Below are positions 1-21,174 of a stretch of 32,000 nucleotides of DNA, piece after piece. A program made the position numbers and the translations under genes. This stretch comes from Acaryochloris thomasi RCC1774 (GTDB lineage: Bacteria; Cyanobacteriota; Cyanobacteriia; Thermosynechococcales; Thermosynechococcaceae). Numbering within the stretch: position 1 is the stretch's first letter; each line of letters opens with the position of its first letter. Location: contig NZ_PQWO01000009.1 in the NCBI RefSeq assembly GCF_003231495.1, positions 150,001-182,000 of the forward strand, given 5' to 3'. The notes under the pieces are model-generated. The model did no database searches. It was given only the letters and a program-made list of their open reading frames with translations, and was not told where the DNA came from.

Positions 1-2468
1 CCTTGTTCACTGGGTGCCTTTTCAATATCCAGCAGCCGATAGTCTATGAACGGATAGTCAGCAAACTTCTCTTCTGCCTTGGCGGTGAATAAAAAGGAGA
101 CATCGGTGAAGGTATATTCAGTCCTGTAGCCGGGAAGCTGGGGCAAAACGTAGGCTGTTGTCCCGCCGGTACCTGCCCCAATTTCTAGAATTCGAATGGT
201 GCGATCTGTAGGGAGATCTTGGATGGCGGTTGCGATCGCATCGACAACCCACTGATTCGCCACCTGAGCCGCCGGAGAATCTTGATACAGCGCCTCAACA
301 TCGGCAACCGATCCGTCAGGGAACAATAGATTGAGCGGATCTTGGCCCTGCAAAACCGACGCTAATCCCTGTCCACATCGCCCCAACAAACTGATCTCAG
401 CCTGACAAGCCGGATAATGAGTTTGAAGACCTTGAAGACGCTGGGCTGGCGCTTCAAGGGTGGGCACCTTCTTGATCTGCCATTGGTTTGCCCCTTGAGC
501 AATGAGAATATCTTGCTCCGTCAAAACCTCAATCAGGCGATGCAGGAGCCGGTGATGCTGGGGCTGGATCTGCTGCCGTAGGGCAGCAAAAGGAAACGGC
601 TGTCCAGGCTGCAAGTTCAGATCCATATCCCAAAAAGCCCAGAGAATAAAATCTCGACTCAAGGTATTGAGCTGGGGCAATAGATCTCGATAGACATCTA
701 GCTTTTCTATACGAGTCTGCTGACGCACTTGATTAGCAATTTGGGACACAGAATCAAAGGTTAGAGTCGTATCCTGTAGTTCCGGCAAAGAGCAAGGACG
801 CCACTCCACTTGATAGAACCAGTCTGCAATCTGGGAGCAAGGGATACTCATCGGCTGCAGCCGAATGCCCTGAAGCGTCATTTTGACGGTGCCGTCAGCG
901 TCTAGAACCCGCACGTCCCCTGTCAGTTCGTCGGCCTGAGAGGTGAGAACTGCATGGCTATAAAGTGGGCCGTCAAGCGCCTCTAGAATGGTGAGTTCAC
1001 CGAGACCAATGGGTAAATAACTAACGGTGTCGGCTTCGGGTAGCGTTGCCCAAAGAACCTGTAGACAGGCATCTAACAGCGCGGGATGAGTACTGTAGTC
1101 GTCGGCATTGAGATGAGCGGGGAGCTTGATCGTTGCGATCGCTTCTCCTTCTGTTCGCCAAAGCTGCTCAATCCCCTGAAAGCTTGAATCTAGCTCAACC
1201 CCACGCGCTTTTAAGGTTTGGTAGAACGCCTTGTTTGCGATCGCATCACAGCGTCCTTGAATAGCGGCAATCGTGTTCCTTTTTAGATCTTGAACATCCT
1301 GAGCCGGGTCTTCTGAATCTGCCGCCATCTCTGGTAAGTGAACCGGAATGCTAACAGAGGCTTCAGTCAGTTCTTTACAGGCCGCGCGCAGCCGATTGAG
1401 ATGGGGAAGGGTTTGCAGAATTAAATCTGGATGCGGCCCAAAATCAAGGAGGCAGGCGATTTCGTTAACGCCGATATGATGAAGCTGCTCCACGAGGCTC
1501 TGACAGCTCTCAGAAGTGCCCAGCAAGGCTCTGCCCTCGCTATAGAATTTCTCGAAAATCCGATCCGTCATCTGATCAAGATCGGTCTCAGAAAGAGAGC
1601 CCAGATCGACAGACTGTCCTCGGCTGTAGCTCAACCCCTGCAGCAGCGGCAGATTGGCTTTCAGATAGCTGCAGTAGGGATGCCGCACTTCTTCCCGCAC
1701 TGTAGTCAAGTCATGGCCCATGTAGGTGTGCAGCGTCACCGTTACCTTGCCAGGGCAATGACCATATTCCACACTCGTTTGACGATACAGCGCAATATTC
1801 TGCGCTAGCGTCGCTAAATCTTGATCAAAGAGATGCGTGAGTAAATTTGCACCTAACTCCCCTGCTTTAGCAAAAGTTTTTGGGTTGCTAGCCGCCGTCA
1901 CCCATAGCGGGAGCTGCTTCTGTACCGGTGTCGGATAGACTCTAATCTCACGGAACTGACCATCACCACCCTGCACCGAAATAGAGTCGCCTCGCCAGAG
2001 CTTCTGGACAGTCTGAATCCCTTCTTCCATGACCTGCCACCGCTGATCGTAGCGCTCAGGGAAGAAGGCAAAATCTCCCGGATTCCAGCCCGAGGCAAAA
2101 GAAAGGCCCACGCGACCATCGGAGAGGTTATCCACCATCGCCCATTCCTCTGCCACTCGGATTGGGTCGTGCAAAGGCAGGACGACACTCCCGGCCTGCA
2201 GGCGAATATTCTGGGTTTCGCGGGCCAGCGCCGCCTGTAAGACCACAGGATTAGGATACAAACAGCCCAAGGGCGTGAAATGCCGTTCAGGAATCCAGAT
2301 GCTAGAGAAGCCATTTTGATCGGCAAACTTGGCGCTTTCGATGACGAGGCGATAGCGATCTTGCTCTAAGTTATCTTCACCACTGGCAAAGAACATCAGA
2401 CCAAACTGCATTCCCGTCTGAGCCATCTGAGCCGTTGCAAGGCTGGGAGTCTGTAGTGCACTCGTCAC
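1..2468 (-). CDS. Type I PKS subunit, truncated by the window edge. It carries a luciferase-like FMN monooxygenase (LLM) domain, the C-terminal half of a PKS dehydratase double-hotdog, and a SAM C-methyltransferase domain. The C-terminus lies beyond position 1.
   Basis: This ORF is absent from the ORF track because it has no stop inside the window. My own minus-strand translation from 2468/2426 down to position 1 is stop-free. It reads MAQTGMQFGLMFFASGEDNLEQDRYRLVIESAKFADQNGFSSIWIPERHF...AGSVVLPLHDPIRVAEEWAMVDNLSDGRVGLSFASGWNPGDF (LLM, MupA/Atu3671-like). It continues with AFYQTLKARGVELDSSFQGIEQLW and YSTHPALLDACLQ (DH motifs 3 and 4), then RILEIGAGTGGTT (MT motif I). The GTG at 2468 overlaps the upstream stop as GTGA and has AAGGA 7 nt upstream. 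ATG 2426 is the alternative start. Confidence 0.85.
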   Translation of the reverse strand, partial: MTSALQTPSLATAQMAQTGMQFGLMFFASGEDNLEQDRYRLVIESAKFADQNGFSSIWIPERHFTPLGCLYPNPVVLQAALARETQNIRLQAGSVVLPLHDPIRVAEEWAMVDNLSDGRVGLSFASGWNPGDFAFFPERYDQRWQVMEEGIQTVQKLWRGDSISVQGGDGQFREIRVYPTPVQKQLPLWVTAASNPKTFAKAGELGANLLTHLFDQDLATLAQNIALYRQTSVEYGHCPGKVTVTLHTYMGHDLTTVREEVRHPYCSYLKANLPLLQGLSYSRGQSVDLGSLSETDLDQMTDRIFEKFYSEGRALLGTSESCQSLVEQLHHIGVNEIACLLDFGPHPDLILQTLPHLNRLRAACKELTEASVSIPVHLPEMAADSEDPAQDVQDLKRNTIAAIQGRCDAIANKAFYQTLKARGVELDSSFQGIEQLWRTEGEAIATIKLPAHLNADDYSTHPALLDACLQVLWATLPEADTVSYLPIGLGELTILEALDGPLYSHAVLTSQADELTGDVRVLDADGTVKMTLQGIRLQPMSIPCSQIADWFYQVEWRPCSLPELQDTTLTFDSVSQIANQVRQQTRIEKLDVYRDLLPQLNTLSRDFILWAFWDMDLNLQPGQPFPFAALRQQIQPQHHRLLHRLIEVLTEQDILIAQGANQWQIKKVPTLEAPAQRLQGLQTHYPACQAEISLLGRCGQGLASVLQGQDPLNLLFPDGSVADVEALYQDSPAAQVANQWVVDAIATAIQDLPTDRTIRILEIGAGTGGTTAYVLPQLPGYRTEYTFTDVSFLFTAKAEEKFADYPFIDYRLLDIEKAPSEQ

Positions 2469-5400
2469 GCTGCGATCCTTTCCCGACTGGGCTGAAGGAC
2501 GATCGCAGAGGCGTGCAGCGTCCAAGGGGCTGTTGCAGATTGCCGACTATGAACCTGAAAACAGGCGGAGGGTTTGGATGCCGCCAACGACACCTGGACT
2601 GTTTTTGGCTGGCCGGGAGTCAGAAAAAGCGGGATATGTAGCTTGAGCTGCTGCATAGGATATTGCCCTTGTCCCCAAGCCGTTTGAGCTGCAGCCATCA
2701 CCATTTCTAAATAAGCTCCCATAAATAGAACCGGTGCTCCTCCCACACGATGCTCATTCAGGTAAGGCATTGTTTCTGGATCGAGTGCAACCTCCCAAAG
2801 CCAGTCCGTTGCTCGATGGGCAGGTGACGCTAACCGATGACCCAAAAGGGGATGATCGGCTTGTTCGTCAACCAGCCTCAGCGAAGGTTCTGTCGTCGGC
2901 AACCAATACCGCTGATGCTGAAATGGATAGGCCGGGAGAGCAATCCGCTGCCGAAGATAGTCCTGATCGAAGCCTTGCCAGTCCACTTCAAAGCCAAACT
3001 CGTACAGCCGCCCCAGACTTTTTAAGAGGCAGGTCCAGTCATCCTGTTTGGGTCGTAGGCTCGGTAGCCACTGGTGAGATGATTTGCCTAGGCACTGTTG
3101 ACCGAGGCTTAGCAAGGTTGGCTGAGGGCCAATCTCTAAGAAAAATTCACATCCCTGATCTGCCAGTGCTTTTATCCCTGCGGCAAACTGTACGGGCTGT
3201 CGAACGTGCTGCACCCAATAATCGGCAGTAGCAATCTCAGGGGGGGCCAGGTCTCCGGTCAGGTTACTGATTAGCTTGATCTGGGGCTGTTGAAAGCTGA
3301 CCGATTCAGCAATCTGTCGAAACTCATCTAAGATTGGCTCCATCAGCGGCGAATGGAATGCATGGGATACCGTTAGCACCTTGAGCGATATTCCTTGAGC
3401 CATTAGCTCAGCAGAAATCTTGCGGACCTCTGAACGCTGCCCAGATATCACAACGTTTTGGGGGCCATTGATGACGGCGATGCTGACGTTTTGATACGCC
3501 GCTACTAGCGGCTCTACTTGTTTAAGGGCAGCCCTAACTGCGACCATTTCACCCTCGGCGGGTAGAGCCTGCATGAGCCGACCTCGGGCTGCAATTAGCT
3601 TTAACCCGTCTTCAAGACTAAAGACACCGGCAATGCAGGCTGCAACATATTCACCAACGCTGTGCCCTAAGAGTGCGTCTGGCTCGATTCCCCAAGACTG
3701 CCATAGTTTTGCGAGGGCATATCCTAGGGCAAAGAGGGCAGGTTGAGTGTGAGCAGTTTCGTCAATGAGTGATGTCGTACTGATAGCTGGATAGAGAACA
3801 TCTAGCAATGAAGGCTCTAATTGCAGAATCTCTGCACAGTCATTGAGTGCCTGCCGGAAGGTGGGTTGAGTGTCGTAAAGCTGTCGCCCCATGCCCACAT
3901 ACTGAGATCCCTGCCCGGTAAACAGAAAGCCGATGGTTTTAGATTGTGTTTGAGGATGCTTTTTGTAACCCTGAGAAATTAAGGTTTGGAGCTGCTCTTT
4001 GAGGTGCTGGGTGGAGTGGGATGCGATCGCAACTCCAAACCCAAGCGAAAAACGTCCTGTATTAGATGAATAGCAAAGATCTGCAAGGTTCACGGTGGCC
4101 GCGACCTCCTGCACATACAGTTCACACAGTGCCTGCAGCGCTGCGGGAGTCTGAGCCGATAACGCCAATAAATGCTGCGGCCTCTCGTTCGGGACTGGAG
4201 CTTTAAAAGTTTGGATCGGGGCTTCCGCAATAATGGCGTGGGCATTGGTACCGCCGAAGCCAAAGGCACTGACGCCTGCTAAACGCCTTTGATCAGAAGC
4301 GGGCCAGGGTTGGGGTTGGGATGCGATCGCAAACCCTGAACCCTCCAGTTCAATATAGGGATTCAGTTTCTGACAGTTCAGATGTGCCGGAATAGAGCCA
4401 TGCTGTAGAGCCAACACAACCTTCATTAATCCGGCGATACCCGCAGCCGACTCTAAGTGACCGATATTTGTTTTCACCGACCCAAGCCAGCAGGTCTGTT
4501 CACGACCCTGCCCTAAAACCTTTTGCAAAGAGGCCACTTCAATCGGATCTCCTAATGGCGTCCCCGTGCCGTGGGTTTCGACATATTGAATCTTTGCCGG
4601 AGCCACACCCGCTTGATCTAACGCCTGAGCAATCACCCGTTGCTGTGCTAAACCATTGGGGGCTGTAATTCCATTACTGCGGCCATCTTGATTGATGGCC
4701 GATCCCATGATTATCGCCAGAATCGGATCGCCATCTCGTTGGGCATCTGCCAATCGCTTGAGAACAATCAGTCCACAGCCTTCTCCTCTGACATAGCCAT
4801 CGGCATCGGCATCAAAGGTTTTACAGCGACCATCGGCGGCCATCATTTGAGCCTCCGTGAAGGCTGTCGTTAGTTCTGAAGAGAGAATGGCATTGACGCC
4901 ACCTGCGATCGCAAGTTCGCAGTCCCCCACCCGCAAACTCTGACAGGCTTGATGAACTGCTACGAGCGCAGAAGAACAGGCAGTATCAACAGCAATACTC
5001 GGCCCCTGCAAATTGAACTGATAAGAGAGTCGATTCGCCGCCATACTCAAGGCATTACCCGTGCTGGCGTAGGTGTCCCAGTGTTGTTGAGATTGGGCTA
5101 GTTTGCGACCATAGTCACTGTTGCTGATGCCAACAAACACACCCGTCTGACTATCTTTGATATTTTGTGCCTGTCCCGATCGCTCAAAGGCAGACCATGC
5201 GACCTCAAGCAGTAATCGGTGCTGGGGATCAATCTTTTCGGCTTCCCGTGGAGTAATCCCGAACAGGTCAGCATCAAACTGATCGATGCCCTCGATAAAC
5301 CCGCCCGGATATTGGGACGTGGGGCTGATGGGTTGGATGCGATCGCAAGGCACTTCCCCAATTGCATCAGCGCCATCTTGCAGAAGCTGCCAAAACGCTT

Positions 5401-7564
5401 CTGGACTCTCTGCACCCGGAAATCGACAGTCCATCCCAATAATGGCAATACCGTCTGTCGTCGTTTGAGCTGTTGAAGGCGCAGTTGTCGTAGTCTCGTT
5501 CGCTAAATACTGAGCAAGCTGACGAATGGTGGGGTAGTCGTAGAGCAAGATGGGAGACAGGCGACGCTGGAGCCAGGTTTCCAATTTACCCGAAAGGCTA
5601 ATCGCCGTTGCAGAATTTAAGCCTAGGCTGACAAATTCCACCTGCGGATCAATCTCCGCAAAAGGAACGCTGACTTTCAGGGCAATTTGGTTCCTTAGCC
5701 AAGTTTCAATTGCCTCGCTCGTTACACGAGCAGCCTGAGCCTCCTGAATTTTGGAGTGAGGAGAGAGAAAACTGCTCTTCGCCTTCCCAGACTGCCCATT
5801 GGGTTGTAAATCAGTGGGTTGTAGATGATTGTCCGCAGTCCATTCGCTCAGTACAGTCAATGAGTTGTTCAACAAGCCTTGCTTACAAGCCTGCCGCTGA
5901 ATCTTTCCGCTTGATGTTTTAGGAATGCTCCCCGGCTTCAGCAGATAGAGACCGTGAATCTGTAGCTCGTGGTGTTGAGAAACGGCCTTTTGAACAGTTA
6001 TGATGATGTCTTCGATATTGAGCCTGCGGCGATGGCTACGCTCAACTTCTTGGACAATAACCAGCCGTTCTTCCCCTGCAACAAACTGAGAAACGGCAGC
6101 GCCACAGCCTGATTTCAAGGCTGGATGGCACTGAGCAACTGTGGCCTCAATATCTTGGGGATAGTGGTTCTGCCCTCGAAAAATCAATAAGTCTTTCCGG
6201 CGTCCGGTGATATAGAGTTCACCATCACTGAGAAAGCCCAGATCGCCCGTTCTCAAGAAAGGGCCATCGCCATCAAGATCGGCGCAGAAGGCCGCTTTCG
6301 TCAGCTCCGGCTGATTCCAGTAGCCCTTAGCCACGCTGGGACCAGACACCCAAATCTCTCCTACTTGTTCTGAGGAACAAGGCGTGAGCTGGTCAGGATC
6401 AACAATCTGGACGCTTTGATCCAGTGCTGAATATCCACAGCTCACAAGGGTTTGGGCATCCTCCTCAGTTGCATCAACTTCAAGCACTTGATTGAGTCTT
6501 AGGGCAGTGCCTTGAACAGTTTTGCAAACGAGTTGTTCTGATGCCCGCTTTCCCGTCGTCATCAGGGTTGTTTCAGCCATGCCGTAGCAGGGTAAAAAGG
6601 CTTCCCGTCGGAATCCGCATTCAGCAAAGGCTGTGGCAAAGTTTGAGAGCGTTCCCGCTCGAATGGGTTCGGCTCCTGTGAAGGCGACCCGCCAACTGCT
6701 CAGGTCTAACTCGGCTTTATCCTGGGGTGTCGCTCGCTCGACGCAGAGGTCGTAGGCAAAATTGGGAGCGCCGCTGGTGGTTACCTGATATCGAGAAATA
6801 GCCTGTAGCCACCGAAGGGGCTTCTGCAAGAACTGAGCTGGGTCCATTAGCGTAACGGAACCGCCGCAGTACAAAGGCTGAAGAATCCCCCCAATCAACC
6901 CCATATCATGGTAGGGCGGCAGCCAGGAAACCACGCTCATCTGAGACGTGTGATTGAACTGCCGAGCAATCCAGGCTAGATTGTGCAGCAAGTTCTTATG
7001 GGTGACCATCACCCCTTTGGGGGCTGCGGTTGAACCTGATGTGTACTGGAGAAAGGCAACATCGTCCCCAGCCATCGGCTCAATATGCACGGGTTCTTGT
7101 GGCTTCTGCGCATCATCAGTGACGATCCACTTTAGCTTTTGCAGCCAGGGTAAATCGGGCAACTGTTGCAGACGGTTTAAGGTGGCAGTGGTGGTGAGCG
7201 CCAGCGTGGGTTGAGCGTCGTCAACGATGGACTTTAAACGCTCTAGACTGCGGTTAGGTCGTGGTGGGTAGATAGGTGTTGCGATCGCACCTGCATACAA
7301 GCAACCAAAAAACGCTGCCACGTAAGACAGCCCTGCCGGAAACACCAGCAACACCCGCTCCCTCTTGGCCTCAAACTGCTGGAGCTGCTGGCAAATCCAT
7401 CGAGCCTGCTGGTCGAGACTCTCGTTAGAAAGCTGAACCGCATCTGCCTCACCATCGGTCAGAAAGGTATAGGTCTGATGCTGAGGCTTCGACTGCGCCC
7501 TCCAAATCAGTAGCTCCACAAGTGTCTGAATATCTTTTCTTTCTGACGATTCAGCTTCGAGCAT
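2465..7564 (-). CDS. Type I PKS loading and first extension module: fatty acyl-AMP ligase (FAAL) - ACP - KS - AT (malonyl-type) - N-terminal half of DH
   Basis: This is the 1719-aa track ORF. FAAL/adenylation motif: FLQYTSGSTAAPKGVMVTHKNLL. Carrier motif: LGLNSATAISL. KS motifs: DTACSSALVAVHQA, ETHGTGTPLGDPIE, KTNIGHLESAAG. AT motifs: GFLFTGQGSQYVGMG, GHSVGEYVAACIAG, SHAFHS. DH motif 1 (HPLLGHRLASP) is followed by only about 125 aa before the stop. The track start is a GTG at 7624. ATG 7564 (MLEAESSERKDIQTLVELL...) fits FAAL N-termini better. Confidence 0.95.
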   Translation of the reverse strand: MLEAESSERKDIQTLVELLIWRAQSKPQHQTYTFLTDGEADAVQLSNESLDQQARWICQQLQQFEAKRERVLLVFPAGLSYVAAFFGCLYAGAIATPIYPPRPNRSLERLKSIVDDAQPTLALTTTATLNRLQQLPDLPWLQKLKWIVTDDAQKPQEPVHIEPMAGDDVAFLQYTSGSTAAPKGVMVTHKNLLHNLAWIARQFNHTSQMSVVSWLPPYHDMGLIGGILQPLYCGGSVTLMDPAQFLQKPLRWLQAISRYQVTTSGAPNFAYDLCVERATPQDKAELDLSSWRVAFTGAEPIRAGTLSNFATAFAECGFRREAFLPCYGMAETTLMTTGKRASEQLVCKTVQGTALRLNQVLEVDATEEDAQTLVSCGYSALDQSVQIVDPDQLTPCSSEQVGEIWVSGPSVAKGYWNQPELTKAAFCADLDGDGPFLRTGDLGFLSDGELYITGRRKDLLIFRGQNHYPQDIEATVAQCHPALKSGCGAAVSQFVAGEERLVIVQEVERSHRRRLNIEDIIITVQKAVSQHHELQIHGLYLLKPGSIPKTSSGKIQRQACKQGLLNNSLTVLSEWTADNHLQPTDLQPNGQSGKAKSSFLSPHSKIQEAQAARVTSEAIETWLRNQIALKVSVPFAEIDPQVEFVSLGLNSATAISLSGKLETWLQRRLSPILLYDYPTIRQLAQYLANETTTTAPSTAQTTTDGIAIIGMDCRFPGAESPEAFWQLLQDGADAIGEVPCDRIQPISPTSQYPGGFIEGIDQFDADLFGITPREAEKIDPQHRLLLEVAWSAFERSGQAQNIKDSQTGVFVGISNSDYGRKLAQSQQHWDTYASTGNALSMAANRLSYQFNLQGPSIAVDTACSSALVAVHQACQSLRVGDCELAIAGGVNAILSSELTTAFTEAQMMAADGRCKTFDADADGYVRGEGCGLIVLKRLADAQRDGDPILAIIMGSAINQDGRSNGITAPNGLAQQRVIAQALDQAGVAPAKIQYVETHGTGTPLGDPIEVASLQKVLGQGREQTCWLGSVKTNIGHLESAAGIAGLMKVVLALQHGSIPAHLNCQKLNPYIELEGSGFAIASQPQPWPASDQRRLAGVSAFGFGGTNAHAIIAEAPIQTFKAPVPNERPQHLLALSAQTPAALQALCELYVQEVAATVNLADLCYSSNTGRFSLGFGVAIASHSTQHLKEQLQTLISQGYKKHPQTQSKTIGFLFTGQGSQYVGMGRQLYDTQPTFRQALNDCAEILQLEPSLLDVLYPAISTTSLIDETAHTQPALFALGYALAKLWQSWGIEPDALLGHSVGEYVAACIAGVFSLEDGLKLIAARGRLMQALPAEGEMVAVRAALKQVEPLVAAYQNVSIAVINGPQNVVISGQRSEVRKISAELMAQGISLKVLTVSHAFHSPLMEPILDEFRQIAESVSFQQPQIKLISNLTGDLAPPEIATADYWVQHVRQPVQFAAGIKALADQGCEFFLEIGPQPTLLSLGQQCLGKSSHQWLPSLRPKQDDWTCLLKSLGRLYEFGFEVDWQGFDQDYLRQRIALPAYPFQHQRYWLPTTEPSLRLVDEQADHPLLGHRLASPAHRATDWLWEVALDPETMPYLNEHRVGGAPVLFMGAYLEMVMAAAQTAWGQGQYPMQQLKLHIPLFLTPGQPKTVQVSLAASKPSACFQVHSRQSATAPWTLHASAIVLQPSRERIAA

Positions 7565-7729
7565 GTTCAAAATTGGCAAAAAATAGAGATTGGGCCAGCA
7601 AAAGCGGGTGACGTGGTTTACCACGCTTCAGAAATTCCGATTAGAAAAAGACAGAATATGCGATGAAAACTGAGAGCCACCCTCCTAGACTTCAATCTGG
7701 ACATGGGGCGACGCTCTATTTGATCTGTT

Positions 7730-7777
7730 TTGAGAATATATCTCATTTAAATTAATTGCAACTACTTCTCAATAAAT
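7730..7777. promoter_or_regulatory. Candidate Fur-type iron boxes in the divergent PKS / receptor promoter region
   Basis: TTGAGAAT at 7730-7737 is the reverse complement of ATTCTCAA. It sits inside the dyad TGAGA-ATATA-TCTCA (7731-7745). CTTCTCAATAAAT lies at 7765-7777. From memory, the Anabaena FurA consensus contains ATTCTCAATAAAT. The region is AT-rich and lies between divergent iron-type genes. Confidence 0.45.
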
Positions 7778-7942
7778 AAATTTGTTTTGAGACCAAGATA
7801 AAAAACTGTGCCTGTTATTATGAAGGAACTTCAGAGATTTTACGCGAGGTTTTGGGGCTGAAAAGCTCTAGAAACAGTATTTCCCAATTCTCTGCAGCCT
7901 ATAATCTAACTGCCACTTGACAAAATGATCCTTCGCTTGGCT

Positions 7943-7980
7943 GAATAGTAATGGTTGTGAGTAAATACTACTATTCTCAA
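7943..7980. promoter_or_regulatory. Inverted repeat plus a third ATTCTCAA core upstream of the TonB-dependent receptor
   Basis: GAATAGTA (7943-7950) and TACTATTC (7969-7976) form 8-bp inverted arms with an 18-nt spacer. An exact ATTCTCAA lies at 7973-7980, about 97 nt upstream of the receptor start codon. Confidence 0.35.
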
Positions 7981-8076
7981 CTAAAAGGCTTTTGAGTGCC
8001 TAGGGCTATTGAATCTATTGTGAATAAAGTGGGGATCGCGCCTGTATCAAAGTACAGAGCAAAGTGAGGAGTCATT

Positions 8077-10701
8077 GTGCAAAATTGGTTATTTCCTTGT
8101 GGGGCTTTAGGGGTTGCGGCTGTTCTCATCGCCCAGCCAGCTCAGGCGCAGACGGTTTCCATTAGTGCCGTTGAGCTACTGCAGACCGAAACAGGTCTCA
8201 GTATTGTGCTGACGGTGCCAGATGGAGAAAATCTTGAGGTTTCTACATCTAGTACTGAATCAACTTTCACGGCTGATATCAGCAACGCTCAGTTGAATCT
8301 TCCAGGTGGAGAAATCTTTGAGCAGGCAAACCCAGCACCCGGCATTCGCGCAGTTTCTGTGATCCCCCTAGATGTCAGTCGCGTTCGCGTCACGGTTGTC
8401 GGTGAGACCGACGGTTTGACCAGTGTGGTGCAGCAAGAGGCGCAGCAATTGGTCTTCCAGGTTGAGGCCCCCACTGTCTTAGAGACTCCTGCAACGGAAA
8501 CGCCTGATGATGTCCCCGTAACTGAAGACTCCCCAGAAGAACCGGGGACCGAGGAACCCAGTGCTGACGTCCCGTTCGAAGAGGATGATGATCTCGAGAT
8601 TATCGTCACAGCGACCCGCACCGAAGAAGAAACGGAAGACGTGCCTCGATCCGTCACTGTCGTCAAACGCGAAGACATTGAGCGAGAAGGTCTTGCAGGG
8701 GGCGATCTCACTAGCACACTCGGTAAGCTAGTTCCTGGCTTAGGACCGCCGACTAGCGATGGTCGGACTCGAGTCTTTGATTTGCGGGGTCGTCCCGCTC
8801 AGATTTTAATTGATGGTATTCCTCAGACGGGTAATGCCTCCTTCGGGACAGAGCTATCGGCCATCGATCCCTCATCGATTGAGCGTGTTGAGGTCGTTCG
8901 TGGACCCACCGCTATCTTCGGAGATGGCGCAACAGGGGGTGTGATCAACATCATCACCCGCACACCCACCGAAGAGGGCCAGCAAGTGCGTCTGGGTCTC
9001 ACCCTTCGACCCGACTTTGATAATCTCTCAGAGGGTGGCGTGGGTTTCAAAGTCGATACTGGCATCACGGGCAAGGAAGGAAAGTTTGATTTTCTTTTAA
9101 ATGCGGCCTTTGATGTCAATGACCCCTCATTCGATGCCGAGGGCGATCGAATTCCTCCCACAGATGGTTTGAATAATGACAATCGCGCCATCAACGTTTT
9201 AGCGAAGGCTGGTTTCGATATTTCTGAAAACCAGCGGGTTCAGTTTACCTATAGCTTTTTCAATAATGTCTTCGCGACTGACTTTACTGCTGATACAGCC
9301 AGCATCATCCCTCCAGGCAATCAAGAAGTAGATGCCCTAGAGGTTGGTGAGATTCGATTTGGTGATAACGAGCCTTCTCAAACGGTGCAAAATTTCAACA
9401 TCACCTACCGCCACCAAGACGTTTTTGATTCCGAAGTCAATGTGCAGGCTTTCTTGAGAACGACGGACCTGACCCAGAATATAACTGATATTCGGCAGAA
9501 TCCGGCTCTGGCCCCCTTGTTATTCAACCCCTTTTTGCCCCTTGTGTCTCAGACACAGCTAGACGCTTTAGAGCTTGGGGGACGTCTGCAGGTGGATACA
9601 CCTATCACAGAGCGGTTGAGCCTTTTGTGGGGCGCTGATGTTTCCTATGAAGAGAATGAGCAGCTCTTTCTCGACATTGATCCAGACGCCTTTGATAATG
9701 ACCAAGAAGCCAATGTCTTTCGAGAATTCAATCAGTCTCCGCTGTACAGACTGCGAAATGCGGGTACTTTTGCTCAACTCCAGTGGAACGCAACCGACAA
9801 GCTTGCATTCAGTGGTGGCGCTCGGTATGAGAATATTCGTCTTTCCGTTGATGACTATACAGTCAGTCCCTTTGCAGGGGGGTTCTTTGGCTTCTTCCCC
9901 CCGGCTCAAGTAGAAGGGGGATCGGTAACGGTAGATGATTTTGTGTTTAATGCCGGTATTGTCTACAAAGCCACCGATCAGATTAGTCTGTACGGTAATT
10001 TTGCCCAGGGTTTCTCCATACCGAGTGTCGGAATTGCTTTAGGTCTGGTTGCGGAGGGCAGCACCCTGGAGGACAACGCTCAGCTAGAACCCCAGAAAGT
10101 CAACAACTACGAATTGGGCGTACGCGGTAACTTTGACGATTTAACGCTCAGCCTTGCGGGTTTCTTAAGTACATCTTCCCTCGGCTCAACAATCCAGGTG
10201 GATCAGACCGGTATTACAAGTCAGGTAAGAGCGCCTCAGCGTAATTATGGGGTTGAGTTTACGGCTGATTGGCAGCCGGTCGATCGCTGGCGATTGGGTA
10301 CCATTCTTTCCTGGAATGAAGGTGAAAACAACCCTGAAGATGATGGTGATGACAGCTTTGTTCCTCTCAGTTCCATTGATATTCAGCCCTTCAAGGCAAC
10401 AGTATATGTCGAAAATGAAACACTACCGGGTTGGCGTACTCGTCTCCAGGCTGTGTTTGTTGGAGGACGAGATCGCGCCTTTGATGCGGGTGTTGATCAG
10501 TTTCAAGTGACTGGCTATACCGTCGTTGACCTCTTTAGCACGGTCAAGCTTGGCCCCGGCAAACTTCAGTTCGGAATTAAGAACCTATTAGATAACCAGT
10601 TTTTGCCGGTTAGCTCTCAAGAGCGAACCGGCATTCAAGAAATCCGTCGCTTCCCTGGCGAAGGTCGAACCTACAGTATTCGCTATAGCTTTGAGTTTTA
10701 G
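8077..10701 (+). CDS. TonB-dependent outer-membrane receptor (ferric-siderophore type) with an AMIN-like N-terminal extension
   Basis: 874 aa. The signal peptide ends in AQPAQA. It is followed by an AMIN-like domain and an acidic Pro/Glu linker. A TonB-box-like DLEIIVTATR is present, as is the plug motif RVEVVRGPTAIFGDGATGGVINIIT. A long barrel ends in YSIRYSFEF (aromatic terminus). GAGGAG lies 5 nt upstream of the GTG start. Confidence 0.9.
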   Translation: MQNWLFPCGALGVAAVLIAQPAQAQTVSISAVELLQTETGLSIVLTVPDGENLEVSTSSTESTFTADISNAQLNLPGGEIFEQANPAPGIRAVSVIPLDVSRVRVTVVGETDGLTSVVQQEAQQLVFQVEAPTVLETPATETPDDVPVTEDSPEEPGTEEPSADVPFEEDDDLEIIVTATRTEEETEDVPRSVTVVKREDIEREGLAGGDLTSTLGKLVPGLGPPTSDGRTRVFDLRGRPAQILIDGIPQTGNASFGTELSAIDPSSIERVEVVRGPTAIFGDGATGGVINIITRTPTEEGQQVRLGLTLRPDFDNLSEGGVGFKVDTGITGKEGKFDFLLNAAFDVNDPSFDAEGDRIPPTDGLNNDNRAINVLAKAGFDISENQRVQFTYSFFNNVFATDFTADTASIIPPGNQEVDALEVGEIRFGDNEPSQTVQNFNITYRHQDVFDSEVNVQAFLRTTDLTQNITDIRQNPALAPLLFNPFLPLVSQTQLDALELGGRLQVDTPITERLSLLWGADVSYEENEQLFLDIDPDAFDNDQEANVFREFNQSPLYRLRNAGTFAQLQWNATDKLAFSGGARYENIRLSVDDYTVSPFAGGFFGFFPPAQVEGGSVTVDDFVFNAGIVYKATDQISLYGNFAQGFSIPSVGIALGLVAEGSTLEDNAQLEPQKVNNYELGVRGNFDDLTLSLAGFLSTSSLGSTIQVDQTGITSQVRAPQRNYGVEFTADWQPVDRWRLGTILSWNEGENNPEDDGDDSFVPLSSIDIQPFKATVYVENETLPGWRTRLQAVFVGGRDRAFDAGVDQFQVTGYTVVDLFSTVKLGPGKLQFGIKNLLDNQFLPVSSQERTGIQEIRRFPGEGRTYSIRYSFEF

Positions 10702-10704
10702 TCA

Positions 10705-11706
10705 ATGAATACCTATAACGCCCTGAGTTCAAATGCCGTAAATCTTTATAGACATCTAATTTGGTTCGTTGTGGGTCTACTCTTATTTATTCTGCTTTCA
10801 AGCTGCACAAAAGATCCCCTGCCAGATCTAGCGGCTCAGCGTTCCCCACTGCCTCAAAACAGTTCTCGTACCATTGAGCATGCAATGGGAACGAGCCAAG
10901 TTCCCCAAAAGCCCCAGCGTGTCGTGGTAGTAGATACGGCTGCTCTAGATGCATCTCTAGCACTAGACGTAAAGCCTGTGGGATCAGTAATTTATGAGCA
11001 ATTCCCTAATTATTTAGGGTCGCAGACCGAGGGGATTGAGTCTGTAGGAGACGGAAATCAACCTAACCTAGAAACAATCCTCCGCTTAAACCCCGACTTG
11101 ATCTTAGGGAGCAAGGTTGGCTCTAAGCGACTTTACAAGAATCTGAATCGAATTGCCCCGACTGTTTTTTCTGAGGGCAGTGGTAGAGCAGGCGATTGGC
11201 AAGAGAACTTCATCCTTTTTGCCCAGGCTTTAAATAAAGAACAGCAAGGTTGGCAACTTCTACAGGACTATAAAGATAAAGCTGCAGCTCTCAATACCCA
11301 ATCAAAAGATGTCAGTGAGACGGTCGTTTCTATTGTTGCAACGGCCCAAGGGAAAGTGGGCGTTTTCAGCGTCAAAAGCTTTGCCGGCTCCATCCTGCAA
11401 GATATAGGGGTTGATCGACCAAAAGCGCAGCAGAAACCCAAAAGACATGCAGCTTTTGTTTCTCGAGAGGATTTAGAGAGTCTTGATGGCGATATCATTT
11501 TTCTCGTCCGAGACCAGCGCTCTGATACCAGCTTAGATCGGCAAGCCTTTGTCAGTGATCCTATCTGGGCAAAGCTGAAGGCTGTGAAACGCGATCGCAT
11601 CTATGAAGTCAGCAATCAGGTTTGGTCTGCGGGTAGAAATATCCTCGCCGCCCAAGAGATCCTAAAGGATCTTGAGACAGCTCTTTCTGCTGAGAATCAG
11701 TCCTGA
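10705..11706 (+). CDS. Periplasmic iron-siderophore (FhuD/FecB-type, Peripla_BP_2) substrate-binding lipoprotein
   Basis: 333 aa with a lipobox (LLSSC). PQRVVVVDTAALDASLALDVKPVG and LNPDLILG are patterns typical of class III binding proteins. The gene starts 3 nt after the receptor stop. Confidence 0.85.
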   Translation: MNTYNALSSNAVNLYRHLIWFVVGLLLFILLSSCTKDPLPDLAAQRSPLPQNSSRTIEHAMGTSQVPQKPQRVVVVDTAALDASLALDVKPVGSVIYEQFPNYLGSQTEGIESVGDGNQPNLETILRLNPDLILGSKVGSKRLYKNLNRIAPTVFSEGSGRAGDWQENFILFAQALNKEQQGWQLLQDYKDKAAALNTQSKDVSETVVSIVATAQGKVGVFSVKSFAGSILQDIGVDRPKAQQKPKRHAAFVSREDLESLDGDIIFLVRDQRSDTSLDRQAFVSDPIWAKLKAVKRDRIYEVSNQVWSAGRNILAAQEILKDLETALSAENQS

Positions 11707-11708
11707 AG

Positions 11709-13019
11709 ATGTCGGCAGTTCCTGGCGTTAAAGTCTACGGTACGCTTTGGGCCGGTCAATGTGCTTCCCTGCTTGGCTCTAACATGACGAACTTTGCCGT
11801 CACGCTCTGGGCCTGGGAGCAGACAGGGCAGGCCACACCACTATCTTTACTATTTTTCTTTGCCCAAGTCGCCAAAATTGCAGCGGCCACTTTCTCTGGT
11901 GTGCTGGTAGATCGCTATAGCCGCCAGAAATTGATGATCGTGGGCAACGCAATCGCAGGACTATCCTCTATCTGCATTCTTGTGCTGCTGCAGACGCATC
12001 AACTTGCCCTTTGGCATCTCTACTTTTCCTGCGCTATCAACGGCTTGTTTAGCTATATTCAAAGCCTTGCACTCTCGACCTCGGTGTCGCTGCTATTACC
12101 TGAGCATCACTATGGACGGGCCGGTGCAATGGATTCACTCAAAGGTGCAGGTGCCTTTGTCTTTGCTCCCGCCTTCGCCGGGGCGCTCTACCCATTCATT
12201 GGCTTACTGGGCATTTTAGGGATTGATCTAGCAACCTTCGGTTTTGCGGCTGTTTCCCTATTTGTACTCCATATTCCCCAGCCTTTGCCTATCAGCGGCC
12301 CAGAAACGATTCGCCAAAAGTTAACCTTTGGCTTTCGCTATATTGTTAAGCAACCAGGTCTCAAAGCCATTCTCATATTTTTATTTAGCGCTAACTTTTT
12401 TACGAGCGCCAGTATTGCGATCTTACCCGCCGTGATTTTAGCTCGCAGCGAGAATGATATTGGTCTATTAGCAACGTTCCAGTCAGCATTGGGCTGTGGA
12501 GGTGTCTTCGGGGCATTACTACTGGCAATCTTTGGTGTTTTTACCCCACGTATTCATGGATTATTTTTAGGTGTTGCTTTACCTCAATTAGGCTGGCTCA
12601 TTTTGAGCGTTACGCAAGCTAAAGGGCTGTGGATAGTTGCGGCTTTCTTAAGTGCTTGCTTCATACCGCTCGTTGGCGCATCAAACCAAGCAATCTGGTT
12701 AGCGAAGGTGAAGCCAGCCCTACAAGGTAGGGTTTTTGCAACTCGTTATCTACTAGCTCAAGCATCAACACCTTTGGGCGCAGTAATCTCAGGTCCACTT
12801 GCGGATCGTATTTTTGAGCCTGCAATGCAGAACCAAGGAATTCTAGCAAAGAGTTTTGTTGGGTCTTGGTTAGGAACGGGACAAGGCATGGGACTCACCT
12901 TAGAGCTAATGTGTTTTGCGACCTGCAACTTAGTTATTGGCCTAAGTGGCTATGGAATACGCAGACTTCGATATGCTGAGGTCGTATTGCAAGTTTCTAA
13001 GCCTTCGCTAAGAGAGTGA
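11709..13019 (+). CDS. MFS transporter, EntS/MFS_3-like (putative siderophore exporter)
   Basis: 436 aa. The protein is hydrophobic throughout, with roughly 12 TM segments by eye. The VDRYSRQKLMIVGN loop is typical of the EntS-like MFS_3 family. The ATG lies 2 nt after the binding-protein stop. Confidence 0.85.
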   Translation: MSAVPGVKVYGTLWAGQCASLLGSNMTNFAVTLWAWEQTGQATPLSLLFFFAQVAKIAAATFSGVLVDRYSRQKLMIVGNAIAGLSSICILVLLQTHQLALWHLYFSCAINGLFSYIQSLALSTSVSLLLPEHHYGRAGAMDSLKGAGAFVFAPAFAGALYPFIGLLGILGIDLATFGFAAVSLFVLHIPQPLPISGPETIRQKLTFGFRYIVKQPGLKAILIFLFSANFFTSASIAILPAVILARSENDIGLLATFQSALGCGGVFGALLLAIFGVFTPRIHGLFLGVALPQLGWLILSVTQAKGLWIVAAFLSACFIPLVGASNQAIWLAKVKPALQGRVFATRYLLAQASTPLGAVISGPLADRIFEPAMQNQGILAKSFVGSWLGTGQGMGLTLELMCFATCNLVIGLSGYGIRRLRYAEVVLQVSKPSLRE

Positions 13020-13084: not shown

Positions 13085-13600
13085 TCAATCTAAGTAACCC
13101 ATTAAGTTTCCACTTGAAAGAGAGCTATTATCTGCAATCGGACGATTTCCCGGCAAAGATGCAGAAGGAGTGAGTGACGAATTTAAACGAACAACAGGGC
13201 GATTGCCAAACATTGCAACAATGTCCAAATCACTTTGAAAAACGGGACGATGTTGAGGTAAATGATCAAAGCTTGTCACCTGCCGGGTTCCGACAAGAAT
13301 AGGGCGACTACTGGGGAGTGTCTCAGACGGAACTAGAGTTGGATTGCCCCCATGAACAGGACGATGATCCGGCAGTTCGGATGGTGAGTACACAACCATC
13401 GCTTCGCCAGAATCCTCTGCAGCAGTCTTGGTCAAACGAGGTTCGCTAAATCCCCACCCTTTCTCAGGAAGCGGTGGAAATGGCTCGCCTTTCACGACAG
13501 TAACTTCGTATCCTTTGTCCCCACCTCTGGGACCGACAACTGGATATAGTCCACTATTCTCAACAATTTCCCCAGGACTAAAAAGTTTTTTACTCATCAC
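13085..13600 (-). CDS. Hypothetical protein: YjzC-like N-terminal domain followed by five degenerate RP[VI]-core repeats
   Basis: 171 aa. The N-terminus GEIVENSGLYPVVGPRGGDKGYEVTVVKGEPFPPLP resembles the YjzC family (from memory). Repeats follow at spacings of about 14-23 aa: LPDHRPV, LPSSRPI, LPQHRPV, FGNRPV, LPGNRPI. Confidence 0.6.
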   Translation of the reverse strand: MMSKKLFSPGEIVENSGLYPVVGPRGGDKGYEVTVVKGEPFPPLPEKGWGFSEPRLTKTAAEDSGEAMVVYSPSELPDHRPVHGGNPTLVPSETLPSSRPILVGTRQVTSFDHLPQHRPVFQSDLDIVAMFGNRPVVRLNSSLTPSASLPGNRPIADNSSLSSGNLMGYLD

Positions 13601-13955: not shown

Positions 13956-14417
13956 CTATCGAGGCATACGGTAAAACAGACTCGTCACTTTCCCTAAAAT
14001 GTTGTGAGCAGGAACGTTACCGAAAGAGCGGCTATCAGTGCTAGCGTCCAGATTATCGCCGAGGAGAACATAGGTATTAGGGGAGGCGGCGGTCGATAAC
14101 CGACAGACCAATCCAGGAGTCAATAAATCCTGCGAAGAACTCAAAGGTACGCTGACGGTCATCGCAGCCACCCGCTTCACAATTTTCAACCCAGGCCGCT
14201 CCGGATGTTCCGCTACAACTAAATCTCCCACAATAGGGAGACTCGACCGATAAGCGTGGTGGTTAACCAAAACCTCATCTCCTGGATAGAGTGTCGGCAT
14301 CATCGATAGCCCAACCACCCGGAAACGAAAGCGCCGCCGAAACAACCAAAGCCCAAACTCGAAGAGATTGGGCTTCAATACAGCAGCCAAAGGCCGATCT
14401 AGCTGGCCTTGACCCAT
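13956..14417 (-). CDS. sodX: Nickel-SOD maturation protease (S26 signal-peptidase family)
   Basis: 153 aa. S26 motifs are GLSMMPTL (Ser) and LKIVKRV (Lys), plus LLGDNLDASTDSRSFG. The gene lies immediately downstream of sodN and overlaps it by 19 nt. Confidence 0.85.
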   Translation of the reverse strand: MGQGQLDRPLAAVLKPNLFEFGLWLFRRRFRFRVVGLSMMPTLYPGDEVLVNHHAYRSSLPIVGDLVVAEHPERPGLKIVKRVAAMTVSVPLSSSQDLLTPGLVCRLSTAASPNTYVLLGDNLDASTDSRSFGNVPAHNILGKVTSLFYRMPR

Positions 14418-14869
14418 TGGACATCCCGGTCCTTAGTGGCCCAGAAAATGCCGTGAATTTGCTCCACTGCCGCCATCAGTTCAGTCGCATGCTCAACACT
14501 AACTTCTACCTTGCAGGCAGAACAGAGCTTCGCAGCTTTCCAGAAAATATCATGCAGATCAGGATACTTCTCTAAATGAACAGGCTTGAAGTAGTCTGTC
14601 CAAAGAATGAGAATGTCTTCTTTGGTCTTTTGGGCCTGCTCTTCCTTAATTGCGATGTAGCGAGACAGCGTATTGTTGTAAGCCACCATCGACGCTGCAT
14701 CTTGTCCAGCAGGCTGCAGGTCTACAATCTTTTTCGTCATCGAAAGTACAGCCTCAGCCGTAATGCGGGCTGCAGCCGGATCGTAGACACCACAGGGGCC
14801 ATCACAGTGGGCGTGAACCTCTGGAGCCGGGAAGCAAGCTTGAATTTTGGCTGTAATTGCGTTGAGCAT
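14399..14869 (-). CDS. sodN: Nickel-containing superoxide dismutase precursor
   Basis: The Ni-hook motif HCDGPCGVYDP follows a short leader (MLNAITAKIQACFPAPEVHA | HCDGPCG...). A start at ATG 14869 gives 156 aa, the usual SodN size. The track ORF extends upstream to 14959. Confidence 0.93.
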   Translation of the reverse strand: MLNAITAKIQACFPAPEVHAHCDGPCGVYDPAAARITAEAVLSMTKKIVDLQPAGQDAASMVAYNNTLSRYIAIKEEQAQKTKEDILILWTDYFKPVHLEKYPDLHDIFWKAAKLCSACKVEVSVEHATELMAAVEQIHGIFWATKDRDVQWVKAS

Positions 14870-15083
14870 AGCGTATCGTTCCTCGAATGGATCAATTTGG
14901 GGTATACCCGCATGGTATCTGTCTTTAGCGATCATGGAACAAATTTGACCCGCAATCAAGAAACTTAAGAATCAGTTTGAACTCTGCTATGCCTAGCTTC
15001 TGGCACAAACACGTCGAGGGCTCTTGCATAAGTCTGCGGTCCCAGGGCGATAGATCTAGTAAATCAACGTAATCAAAAGATTT

Positions 15084-17072: not shown

Positions 17073-17332
17073 TGAAAGACGTTTGACGGGTACATTCCCG
17101 CCCATACATCACTGATTGCGACGCTCTACCCTCAACTTATTGAGAGGCATTGTTACAAACGTTCAGAATATAGCTTGACAACTCTCCTCTACAATAAGGA
17201 ATACTTCTCAACTGCGAAAAAGAAGATATTTTGTAAATCCCTTGCTACACAAGTACTTCAGGATAAAGCGACCTGTATTTTTGATCGCATATTGCTCAAT
17301 CAATCTATTCCCTTTAGGAGGCTAACTGAAAC

Positions 17333-18493
17333 GTGTTGTCAAAGAAGACGATTAATCCACAAGCTCTAGAGGTATCCGTCGTCCAGCGTCGTACACCAAA
17401 AACACTATCCCTAATGGGTGCGGTTCTCGCCGTGCTGCTTTTGGGAACCGGGTGCGAAACCACGACAACAACCTCGGAAAGTGGCGGCAGTAGCTCAAGC
17501 GCTGGCGGCAACGTACAGCTGATAAGTGATTTCCCAGAGCAAGTTGTCATTCCGACGTACAAGCTGTTAGTAGAGAAGTCAAACACTCTCAAGACTAAAG
17601 TTGATGCCTTCACAGCCGATGCCAATGTAGAGACACTCAAGGCTGCTCAAGTCGCTTGGACCGAGGCCCGTGAACCTTGGGAACAGAGCGAAGCGTTTGC
17701 CTTTGGCCCGGCTGAATCTTTGGGGTATGACGGCGATCTTGATGATTGGCCCGTCAATGAGACCGATCTTAAAGGCGTGCTAAAGGGGGCGGCCCCCATC
17801 TCGGCAGAAACGGTTGAGGGGCTACAAACGACACAAAAAGGATTTCATACTATTGAGCTACTGCTTTTTGGCTCCGACAACAATAAAACGGCAGCAGATT
17901 TTTCTGACCGTGAAAAGCAGTTGGTGCAGCAGTTAGCCACCGCTTTTGACCAAACGGCAAATGATTTGGTGACCAGTTGGTCTGAAGGTATTGACGGCAA
18001 TCCAGCTTACAAGACTGTTTTAGCAACAGCGGGGAGCGAAGATAACTCAGCCTATCCCACGTCTCAATCGGCTCTAGAGGAAATCGTGGGTGGCATTATT
18101 GGCTGTCTAGATGAAGTAGGGAATGAGAAAATTGGCGAACCGCTCAAGGCTAAAACAACGGATGATCTAGAAAGTCGGTTTAGCCACACTTCTGCCACTG
18201 ATTTCAAAAACAACCTCATTGGCGCCCAGAACGCTTACCTAGGCAAGTCGAAGGCGGGCACAAGTGGTGCCAGCTTAAGCGCATGGCTTGCGGAAAAAGA
18301 TGCCGATCTTGATGCTCAGATTCAGAAAGAACTACAGGCCGCAATTGATGCAGTTGCCGCAATTCCGGCCCCCATTGAACCCAAGATCTCAGAAGAGGCG
18401 GCGTTGGCTCAAATGCAATCGGCCCAAGATGCTGTTTTGACTGCGTTTTCGACTTTCGAAGAGCAGGTATTGCCGCTGGTAGAGTCCAGCTAA
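17333..18493 (+). CDS. Imelysin (peptidase M75) / IrpA-like iron-regulated periplasmic lipoprotein
   Basis: 386 aa with a lipobox (LLLGTGC). WEQSEAFAFGPAESLGYDGDLDDWPVNETDL and GFHTIELLLFG are characteristic imelysin motifs. AGGAGG lies 11 nt upstream of the GTG start. Confidence 0.85.
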   Translation: MLSKKTINPQALEVSVVQRRTPKTLSLMGAVLAVLLLGTGCETTTTTSESGGSSSSAGGNVQLISDFPEQVVIPTYKLLVEKSNTLKTKVDAFTADANVETLKAAQVAWTEAREPWEQSEAFAFGPAESLGYDGDLDDWPVNETDLKGVLKGAAPISAETVEGLQTTQKGFHTIELLLFGSDNNKTAADFSDREKQLVQQLATAFDQTANDLVTSWSEGIDGNPAYKTVLATAGSEDNSAYPTSQSALEEIVGGIIGCLDEVGNEKIGEPLKAKTTDDLESRFSHTSATDFKNNLIGAQNAYLGKSKAGTSGASLSAWLAEKDADLDAQIQKELQAAIDAVAAIPAPIEPKISEEAALAQMQSAQDAVLTAFSTFEEQVLPLVESS

Positions 18494-18565
18494 GCCTGCA
18501 GTTCAATTCACTTTTCTCCTTGGTCAATGGCAGTTTTGGCCAGGAGTCGACTTCGTCCAAGATAA

Positions 18566-19972: not shown

Positions 19973-19994
19973 TGTTCGAGCCTTATCTACGCTA

Positions 19995-20025
19995 AACGGC
20001 GTCGCCCTAGCAGAGCAACGCCGTT
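19995..20025. terminator. Hairpin between convergent genes (possible bidirectional terminator)
   Basis: AACGGCGT (19995-20002) pairs with ACGCCGTT (20018-20025). The stem is 8 bp and the loop 15 nt. There is no strong U-tract. Confidence 0.35.
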
Positions 20026-20054
20026 ATTAAACGATCAGGAACTCAATCTTAGGC

Positions 20055-21120: not shown

Positions 21121-21174
21121 CGATTCGGAACATCCCTTCTTAGGCATCGGTCAATACATCATTCAAGCGTTATG

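Follow-up and report, generated by a model that had tools for sequence, protein, structure and literature searches.

A 32-kb stretch of DNA from Acaryochloris thomasi RCC1774 (contig NZ_PQWO01000009.1, positions 150,001 to 182,000; hereafter the window) carries two polyketide synthase (PKS) genes on the minus strand and three transport genes on the plus strand, which diverge from a common spacer. The transport genes encode a TonB-dependent receptor, a periplasmic binding lipoprotein and a major facilitator superfamily (MFS) pump. We propose, with a probability of roughly 0.85, that the window holds the 5′ end of a cyanobacterial siderophore cluster of the cyanochelin type, a hybrid of PKS and non-ribosomal peptide synthetase (NRPS) modules, together with a minimal transport cassette. 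An initial annotation of the same sequence had argued from gene-cluster logic for a lipidic polyketide metallophore. The metallophore argument gains support from the collinearity of all five genes with the characterised cyanochelin B/cctA-B-C locus, at 45–55% identity. The term polyketide does not hold equally well, as homology to the cyanochelins indicates that the product is probably a hybrid PKS-NRPS lipopeptide siderophore rather than a pure polyketide.

Likeness to the cyanochelin B locus

The PKS and the receptor were searched separately by tblastn against 72,556 plasmids. The same record ranked first for both, AP017310.1 (Leptolyngbya sp. NIES-3755 plasmid 2), with 55% identity over 98% coverage for the PKS and 44% over 98% for the receptor. 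This plasmid carries the cyanochelin B cluster and the cctA-J transport cassette (PMC12628792; bioRxiv 10.64898/2026.07.30.741596). Cyanochelin B is a purified, structure-solved β-hydroxyaspartate lipopeptide siderophore made under iron deprivation; its head has a C15 alkyl on a carbinol carbon, adjoining a quaternary carbon with OH and CH3, and is joined to a methylthiazoline (PMC12628792). The five window proteins align to their reference counterparts across 92–98% of their length at 45–55% identity: PKS gene 1 with BAU16016 at 55%, gene 2 with BAU16015 at 52%, the receptor with CctA/BAU16017 at 44.7%, the binding protein with BAU16018 at 46% and the MFS pump with BAU16019 at 54%.

The two loci also share their layout. 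Biosynthetic and transport operons diverge in both, with an AMIN-containing TonB-dependent receptor, a binding protein and an MFS gene in the same order, and the spacer contains a related palindrome. PKS genes 1 and 2 agree with their reference counterparts in domain order, and in both loci one protein ends and the next begins between the halves of a dehydratase (DH) domain. The published domain string for cyanochelin B reads FAAL-CP-KS-AT-Ox-cMT-KR, KS0-Cyc-A... (PMC12628792), that is, fatty acyl-AMP ligase, carrier protein, ketosynthase, acyltransferase, flavin monooxygenase, C-methyltransferase and ketoreductase, followed by a non-elongating KS, a cyclisation domain and an adenylation domain. 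The window domains fit this string up to the window end. The loci differ after the MFS gene, where cctD (ferredoxin-like), cctE/F (permeases) and cctG/H/J (DevBCA-like) are missing from the window and unrelated genes are found. Moreover, the reference lies on a 98-kb plasmid, whereas the window locus is presumably chromosomal.

Closer relatives extend the comparison past the window. The nearest, L085, lies on a 209-kb marine-metagenome contig and is 78% identical in the PKS, 81% in the gene for the luciferase-like monooxygenase (LLM), 68% in the receptor and 67% in the binding protein. A second locus, L001, from an Acaryochloris sp. metagenome-assembled genome, shows 63%, 72%, 65% and 63% identity, respectively. 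In both, gene 2 continues with cMT, KR and an acyl carrier protein (ACP), and gene 3 encodes KS-ACP-Cy/C-A-PCP (Cy, cyclisation; C, condensation; PCP, peptidyl carrier protein), so that they fit the published string gene for gene. The gene-3 KS of these relatives reads EAQGTGT where HGTGT is expected; because the first catalytic histidine is replaced by glutamine, we regard it as a non-elongating KS0.

In seven loci (L085, L001, L049, L007, L005, L006 and L081), a divergently oriented receptor gene precedes the PKS, with 42–68% identity to that of the window. That the same divergent pair recurs at such low identity shows that the linkage between receptor and PKS is more than chance.

The chelating chemistry was probed with the cyanochelin TauD dioxygenase, BAU16062, as query. 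Matches of 61–62% identity were found on contigs of 209,101 bp, the size of L085's, and 68,769 bp, the size of L001's, the latter named Acaryochloris sp. IP29b_bin.148; another match lies on a 58,774-bp contig, the size of L005's. At L162, the TauD locus assigned to L085, the order is three NRPS genes (2942, 1037 and 1580 aa), TauD, an NRPS gene of 1477 aa, MbtH, a thioesterase, a DevBCA-like trio, FecE and FecCD, in close parallel to the sizes in the reference (2933 aa, 1048 aa, ..., TauD, 1505 aa). On a short Acaryochloris contig (L165), NRPS genes of 1054 and 1570 aa stand directly upstream of TauD. A search with the N-terminus of a relative's fourth NRPS gene gave only proteins of up to about 1100 aa and was uninformative, because C-A didomains are too generic. 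The NRPS and TauD genes around the relatives therefore place the window's family among the β-hydroxyaspartate lipopeptide siderophores. Unlike cyanochelin B, L085/L162 has a cysteine module without a methyltransferase, and its cluster ends with MbtH and a thioesterase instead of a reductase-type release. A different congener is therefore expected, and by these comparisons the window's product, too, is probably distinct from cyanochelin B.

Other cyanochelins offer a further comparison. Cyanochelin C (Myxacorys spp.; bioRxiv 10.64898/2026.07.24.740629) and cyanochelin A (Rivularia sp. PCC 7116) are of the same FAAL-primed cyanobacterial lipopeptide type, with a TauD-type hydroxylase that makes β-hydroxyaspartate and an oppositely oriented transport cassette beside the cluster. 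In the cyanochelin C cluster, unlike in the window, the FAAL and the NRPS modules are directly fused, with no PKS/Ox module in between, and an Ntn acylase, CcsQ, stands between cluster and cassette; no acylase occurs in the window. The cyanochelin C receptor is also phylogenetically distant from CctA.

Domain content of the PKS genes

The first PKS gene begins with a loading domain whose top solved relatives are FAALs: 7R7E-G with E=1e-190, followed by 3KXW, FadD32, FadD23 and FadD28. Acyl-CoA ligases match far more weakly, at about 1e-23. The LLM domain matches TIGR04020, the MupA/Atu3671 family, over model positions 1–341 of 341 with 465.5 bits against a cutoff of 244.45. Both domain types had been named in the initial annotation, and both assignments are upheld by these scores. 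The family takes its name from Atu3671 of the alphaproteobacterium Agrobacterium tumefaciens, where Atu3670-3685 is a hybrid PKS/NRPS siderophore cluster with an LLM of this family.

The window carries KS, AT and LLM domains and the initial 60 residues of the cMT; KR and ACP domains are seen past the corresponding edge position in L085, L001 and BAU16015. Both PKS frames are open across 7.5 kb, and their catalytic motifs are all intact.

MupA-type enzymes α-hydroxylate ACP-bound β-keto thioesters ahead of a KS0 (PMC10952193). The mupirocin bimodule (MupA, MmpD ACP, MmpA KS0; PMC10952193) resembles the present system in having an LLM of the same TIGR04020 family and a KS0, the latter found here in gene 3 of the relatives. 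However, MupA is free-standing and belongs to a trans-AT antibiotic PKS, whereas in the window the LLM is a covalent part of a cis-AT module, inserted between the DH halves.

The two PKS polypeptides are separated from each other within the double-hotdog fold of the DH. Gene 1 ends with the PF21089 half; gene 2 starts with the LLM, followed by the PF14765 half. This arrangement is not peculiar to A. thomasi: among L001–L154, 63 of 71 loci are split at the same point, and the other eight have both parts in one open reading frame (ORF). The split was found in at least five phyla, among Cyanobacteria, Ktedonobacteria, Acidobacteriota, Myxococcota, Bacteroidota and others. The DH retains its catalytic histidine and DxxxQ motif, although the β-hydroxyl is retained in cyanochelin B.

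Two non-chelating lipid pathways were considered and rejected. An olefin synthase has the order FAAL-ACP-KS-AT-KR-ACP-sulfotransferase-TE (TE, thioesterase), but no sulfotransferase or TE follows the FAAL module here; DH halves, LLM and cMT occur instead. A PKS of the heterocyst-glycolipid HglE type was ruled out by domain content, with KS0 and NRPS modules coming next in the relatives. An architecture matching an olefin or glycolipid pathway, which the initial annotation had raised as a possibility, was thus not found.

Transport cassette and shared spacer

The receptor scores 36.8 bits for the AMIN domain (cutoff 20.5), 70.4 for the plug and 142.9 for the barrel in Pfam. Its best NCBIfam model is RhtA, which aligns with residues 174–848 at 211 bits, against an equivalog cutoff of 1100. 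With the siderophore-receptor model TIGR01783, which is mainly proteobacterial, it reaches 192.2 bits, just under the cutoff of 223.5. Models of BtuB, CirA, FepA and FhuA cover the plug only, and haem-receptor equivalogs match the plug only or fall far under their cutoffs. In the plasmid search, 1,769 records cover at least 80% of the receptor, and the sampled Escherichia coli and Klebsiella rows were almost all annotated iutA. By similarity, CctA ranks first (45%), followed by plasmid receptors of Picosynechococcus PCC 7002/7117 (39%) and IutA, which aligns over its full length at about 24% identity (E ~1e-45 to 1e-50). This ranking agrees with the published placement of CctA beside the schizokinen, aerobactin and rhizobactin receptors. 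A PDB sequence search with the receptor matched plug domains only.

The uptake systems for aerobactin, rhizobactin 1021 and schizokinen (IutA, RhtA, SchT; YfiY) therefore bear comparison with the window genes: the receptor aligns over plug and barrel, and YfiY is the best solved relative of the binding protein. Differences from the IutA/RhtA/SchT systems are the low identity to IutA, the cyanobacteria-specific N-terminal AMIN domain and the neighbouring PKS/NRPS genes, in place of NRPS-independent siderophore (NIS) synthetase genes.

A receptor operon that imports a substrate other than a siderophore (cobalamin, haem or a non-iron metal), with another metallophore or none as the product of the PKS, seems to us scarcely credible. 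TonB-dependent receptor families are hard to assign by sequence, which leaves room for such a reading, as does the shortfall against TIGR01783; moreover, the lusichelins and fatuamide, from cyanobacterial PKS/NRPS systems, are termed metallophores, not siderophores, in titles and abstracts. Against this stand the full-length matches, which are to IutA, RhtA and CctA, and the plug-only or far weaker matches to the BtuB and haem-receptor models; a BtuB-type receptor, the case to which the initial annotation had drawn attention, is not what these similarities point to. A cobalamin riboswitch was sought upstream of the receptor, and no Rfam family matches anywhere in the window. In addition, the relatives of the binding protein all bind ferric siderophores or ferric citrate.

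The binding protein matches YfiY, which binds schizokinen, at 1.6e-51 in the PDB, followed by SirA, FecB, HtsA and YfmC, and these nearest solved relatives all bind carboxylate/citrate-type ferric siderophores. It had been described as FhuD-like, which is correct for the Peripla_BP_2 superfamily but not for FhuD itself: the FhuD model NF007864 gives 49.6 bits against a cutoff of 252, and the closest relatives are YfiY, SirA and FecB. The Fe-dicitrate binding subfamily scores 125.8 bits (cutoff 320). Similarly, the pump, first labelled EntS-like, belongs to the MFS but reaches only 51 bits with the EntS model NF007792 (cutoff 324); its homologue is CctC, and its best model is the general H+ antiporter group TIGR00900 (143 bits, cutoff 319.6). 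At most, it may resemble EntS in its working by analogy.

No permease or ATPase genes occur in the transport cassette. Such a cassette can work, because CctA and CctB alone confer cyanochelin-dependent growth on Synechocystis when the host supplies FecCDE (bioRxiv 10.64898/2026.07.30.741596). Two relatives have a sucrase/ferredoxin-like gene of the CctD family and a fused ABC exporter in the receptor's place (L083, 682-3813; L004, 823-3870), so cassette composition varies within the cyanochelin-like family.

The small cassette bears on whether the locus is a decayed or truncated remnant, with intact visible genes and a downstream assembly line that is broken or missing, so that no product is made. 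The absence of the reference cctD-J genes, the position of the remaining assembly line outside the window and the unrelated flanking genes (sodX/sodN, a bromoperoxidase) would all fit a remnant. We nevertheless consider this very unlikely, since the PKS frames and catalytic motifs are intact, operon spacing is tight, the receptor and binding protein make up the import set that is experimentally sufficient, and the nearest relative has its permease genes at the other end of the cluster.

The ORFs of the PKS, receptor, binding protein and MFS pump were located by ORF and Pfam checks where the initial annotation had placed them. Gaps on the plus strand are 3 nt between receptor and lipoprotein and 2 nt between lipoprotein and MFS; on the minus strand, gene 2 starts (2426) 38 nt past the gene 1 stop. 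The divergent region, earlier put at 450–510 bp and called AT-rich, measures 452 bp with the GTG start of gene 1 and 512 bp with the ATG start, and has a GC content of 0.39 against about 0.51 for the 32-kb window.

The spacer contains candidate regulatory sites. When the whole window was scanned for the FurA consensus of Anabaena, AAATAAATTCTCAATAAAT (PMC4005646), the two closest matches both fell in the spacer: 7759-7777 has 4 mismatches and 7725-7743 has 5. When the spacers of L001, L049, L007, L005 and L081 were used to footprint that of the window, TTGAGAATATATCTCA came out on top, with a counterpart in every locus. A matrix built from the six sites recovers TTGAGAGTATCTCTCA in the held-out spacer of L085, the closest relative. 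The TTGAGAATATATCTCA site is the sole TGAGA-N(3-9)-TCTCA match in the window, and its half-site, TGAGAAT, is the reverse complement of the FurA consensus core ATTCTCA. No match to the Fur box of E. coli was found within 3 mismatches, and sigma-70 and terminator scans of the spacer remained at chance level. The Fur-box-like motifs previously noted in this region thus correspond to Anabaena FurA-type matches and a conserved palindrome, but not to an E. coli-type box. These spacer motifs are suggestive of Fur control of both operons.

Several points weigh against the cyanochelin-type reading. The FAAL-KS-AT-DH/LLM cassette is also common in bacteria other than cyanobacteria (Ktedonobacteria, Acidobacteriota, Myxococcota and Bacteroidota), there with no receptor nearby, so that the PKS genes by themselves do not identify a siderophore cluster. 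The product is unlikely to be cyanochelin B itself, because the window shows 45–55% identity to the reference whereas known cyanochelin B clusters are 87–91% identical to one another (PMC12628792). The chelating part of the assembly line lies beyond the window, its presence being predicted from relatives 72–81% identical, and L085 is joined to the TauD locus L162 by equal contig size and gene-length arithmetic, without overlapping sequence. The footprinting score of 63 exceeds the shuffled maximum of 60 by a small margin (10 shuffles). Finally, iron-responsive expression and operator function are predictions, and the export role of the MFS pump is putative, as it is in the reference system.

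The distribution of the cassette would also fit an alternative in which the PKS makes a non-chelating lipopeptide or lipid, such as a toxin or surfactant with an α-hydroxylated fatty head, and the adjoining operon imports another siderophore, for example a schizokinen-type xenosiderophore. The schizokinen binding of YfiY points the same way, as does the published tree, in which schizokinen receptors fall in the same clade as CctA. We judge this improbable. In seven loci, with receptor identities down to 42%, the receptor is kept and is always divergent from the same PKS gene, and a conserved palindrome lies in the shared spacer. Furthermore, in the reference organism the cassette takes up what the neighbouring cluster makes (bioRxiv 10.64898/2026.07.30.741596), and TauD and NRPS genes occur on the relatives' contigs. 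We therefore retain the cyanochelin-type reading for the window; Table 1 lists its features.

Table 1. Features of the PKS and transport locus, with positions counted from the first nucleotide of the window
Feature	Position	Strand	Basis or remark
PKS gene 1	2465..7564	-	Alternative GTG start 7624; ATG at 7564 likelier (relatives' N-termini aligned)
FAAL loading domain (AMP-binding)	~5852-7498	-	Pfam; solved relatives are FAALs
ACP (PP-binding)	~5504-5701	-	Pfam; GLNS motif
KS	~4373-5452	-	Pfam; DTACSS, HGTGT and NIGH motifs
AT	~3032-3928	-	Pfam; GHSVG and malonyl-type HAFH motif
DH, first half (PKS_DH_N, PF21089)	~2543-2854	-	Pfam
PKS gene 2, N-terminal 808 aa	3..2426	-	Reading frame open to left window edge
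LLM α-hydroxylase domain	~1386-2411	-	Pfam Bac_luciferase 1.2e-52; TIGR04020
DH double hotdog, second half (PS-DH, PF14765)	~849-1244	-	Pfam 1.6e-31
C-methyltransferase start, first 60 residues	3-191	-	Pfam Methyltransf_12
Divergent promoter/operator spacer	7565..8076	.	AT-rich, GC 0.39
Palindrome TTGAGAATATATCTCA, candidate Fur-type operator	7730..7745	.	Best-conserved 16-mer across orthologous spacers
Best Anabaena FurA consensus match in window	7759..7777	+	15/19 positions; exact 12-mer TTCTCAATAAAT at 7766-7777
TonB-dependent ferri-siderophore receptor, CctA homologue	8077..10701	+	Pfam; similarity to CctA, RhtA, IutA
Receptor parts	signal peptide; AMIN ~8179-8454; plug ~8635-8943; barrel ~9223-10587	+	Pfam
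Periplasmic siderophore-binding lipoprotein, CctB homologue	10705..11706	+	Peripla_BP_2 1.3e-28; LSSC lipobox
MFS efflux pump, CctC homologue, presumed siderophore exporter	11709..13019	+	MFS_1, MFS_3

Proposed pathway, neighbouring genes and meaning for the family

From the domain content and the reference system, a pathway can be proposed. Under iron shortage, a Fur-type repressor would leave the conserved palindrome in the spacer, and both operons would be transcribed. The FAAL, whose identity is clear from its domain matches, would adenylate a long-chain fatty acid and load it onto the ACP, with a chain length suggested by the C16 tail of cyanochelin B. KS and AT would carry out a single malonate extension, in keeping with the HAFH motif in the AT. 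The C-methyltransferase would then methylate the α carbon, and the MupA-type LLM, dependent on flavin mononucleotide (FMN), would hydroxylate the same carbon on the β-keto thioester. Reduction of the ketone by the KR just past the window would give a 2-methyl-2,3-dihydroxy acyl head, as the cyanochelin B structure and MupA biochemistry suggest.

The steps beyond the window are modelled on the relatives. There, the KS0 would pass the chain to a cyclising cysteine module and further NRPS modules, and the TauD dioxygenase would make β-hydroxyaspartate, supplying the Fe(III)-binding groups. By homology to CctC, the MFS pump would export the product; by homology to CctA and CctB, the AMIN-containing receptor would re-import the ferric complex and the lipoprotein would bind it in the periplasm. 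The lipoprotein may then hand the complex to a FecCDE-type ABC importer encoded elsewhere, which in the nearest relative lies at the far end of the cluster.

We further speculate, tentatively and as a combined proposal that is itself doubtful, that the locus specifies a new congener from a marine Acaryochloris-like lineage, served only by a receptor, a binding protein and an MFS pump, a smaller cassette than any seen so far, and that the DH break, exactly at the LLM insertion point, is a functional non-covalent junction. The DH halves could reassemble in trans, dock the two PKS polypeptides onto one another and position the α-hydroxylase.

Outside the locus, the window holds genes of varied kinds. 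The MFS gene is immediately followed, in the other orientation, by a 171-aa ORF (13085-13600, minus strand), a candidate gene with repeated (N/H)RP(V/I) motifs for which neither a family nor a PDB match was found. A nickel superoxide dismutase (Sod_Ni) adjoins an S26-type signal peptidase, presumably the maturation peptidase SodX (13956-14959, minus strand). The pairing of Sod_Ni with SodX is typical of marine cyanobacteria. A 615-aa vanadium-dependent bromoperoxidase follows (15162-17009, plus strand), with no Pfam or NCBIfam match; it was recognised by its solved relatives, 5LPC at E=1.4e-146 and then red-algal bromoperoxidases.

An iron-flavoured run of genes lies downstream of the cassette (17333-23947, plus strand). 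It comprises an imelysin (Peptidase_M75, with weak EfeO similarity), a di-haem oxidoreductase (DHOR), a DUF1800/DUF1501 pair and a PiuC/YbiX-type Fe(II)-dependent dioxygenase (NF003974, 297 bits). A weak match to the palindrome matrix is found at the start of the imelysin gene (17327-17342). Further on are a single protein combining a PTS_EIIC-like membrane domain with an EAL domain (24438-26501, plus strand) and a Pst-type ABC operon consisting of PBP_like_2, two permeases and an ATPase (26535-29926, minus strand). In the last kilobase (31001-32000), beside a GT-D-like protein, GC content falls to 0.36.

The locus is new but of a known type, and it opens no new biological question. The number of known cyanobacterial siderophores is small, and it was not until 2021–2026 that the cyanochelin family was defined. 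Should the proposed split-DH junction prove true, PKS polypeptides would dock here in a way that has not been described before. The locus supports the published view that a receptor and a binding protein form the functional uptake core. As a divergent member, it would take the cyanochelin family outside the Leptolyngbyaceae, the source of cyanochelin B, and give chemists working on natural products a definite place to look for a new congener.

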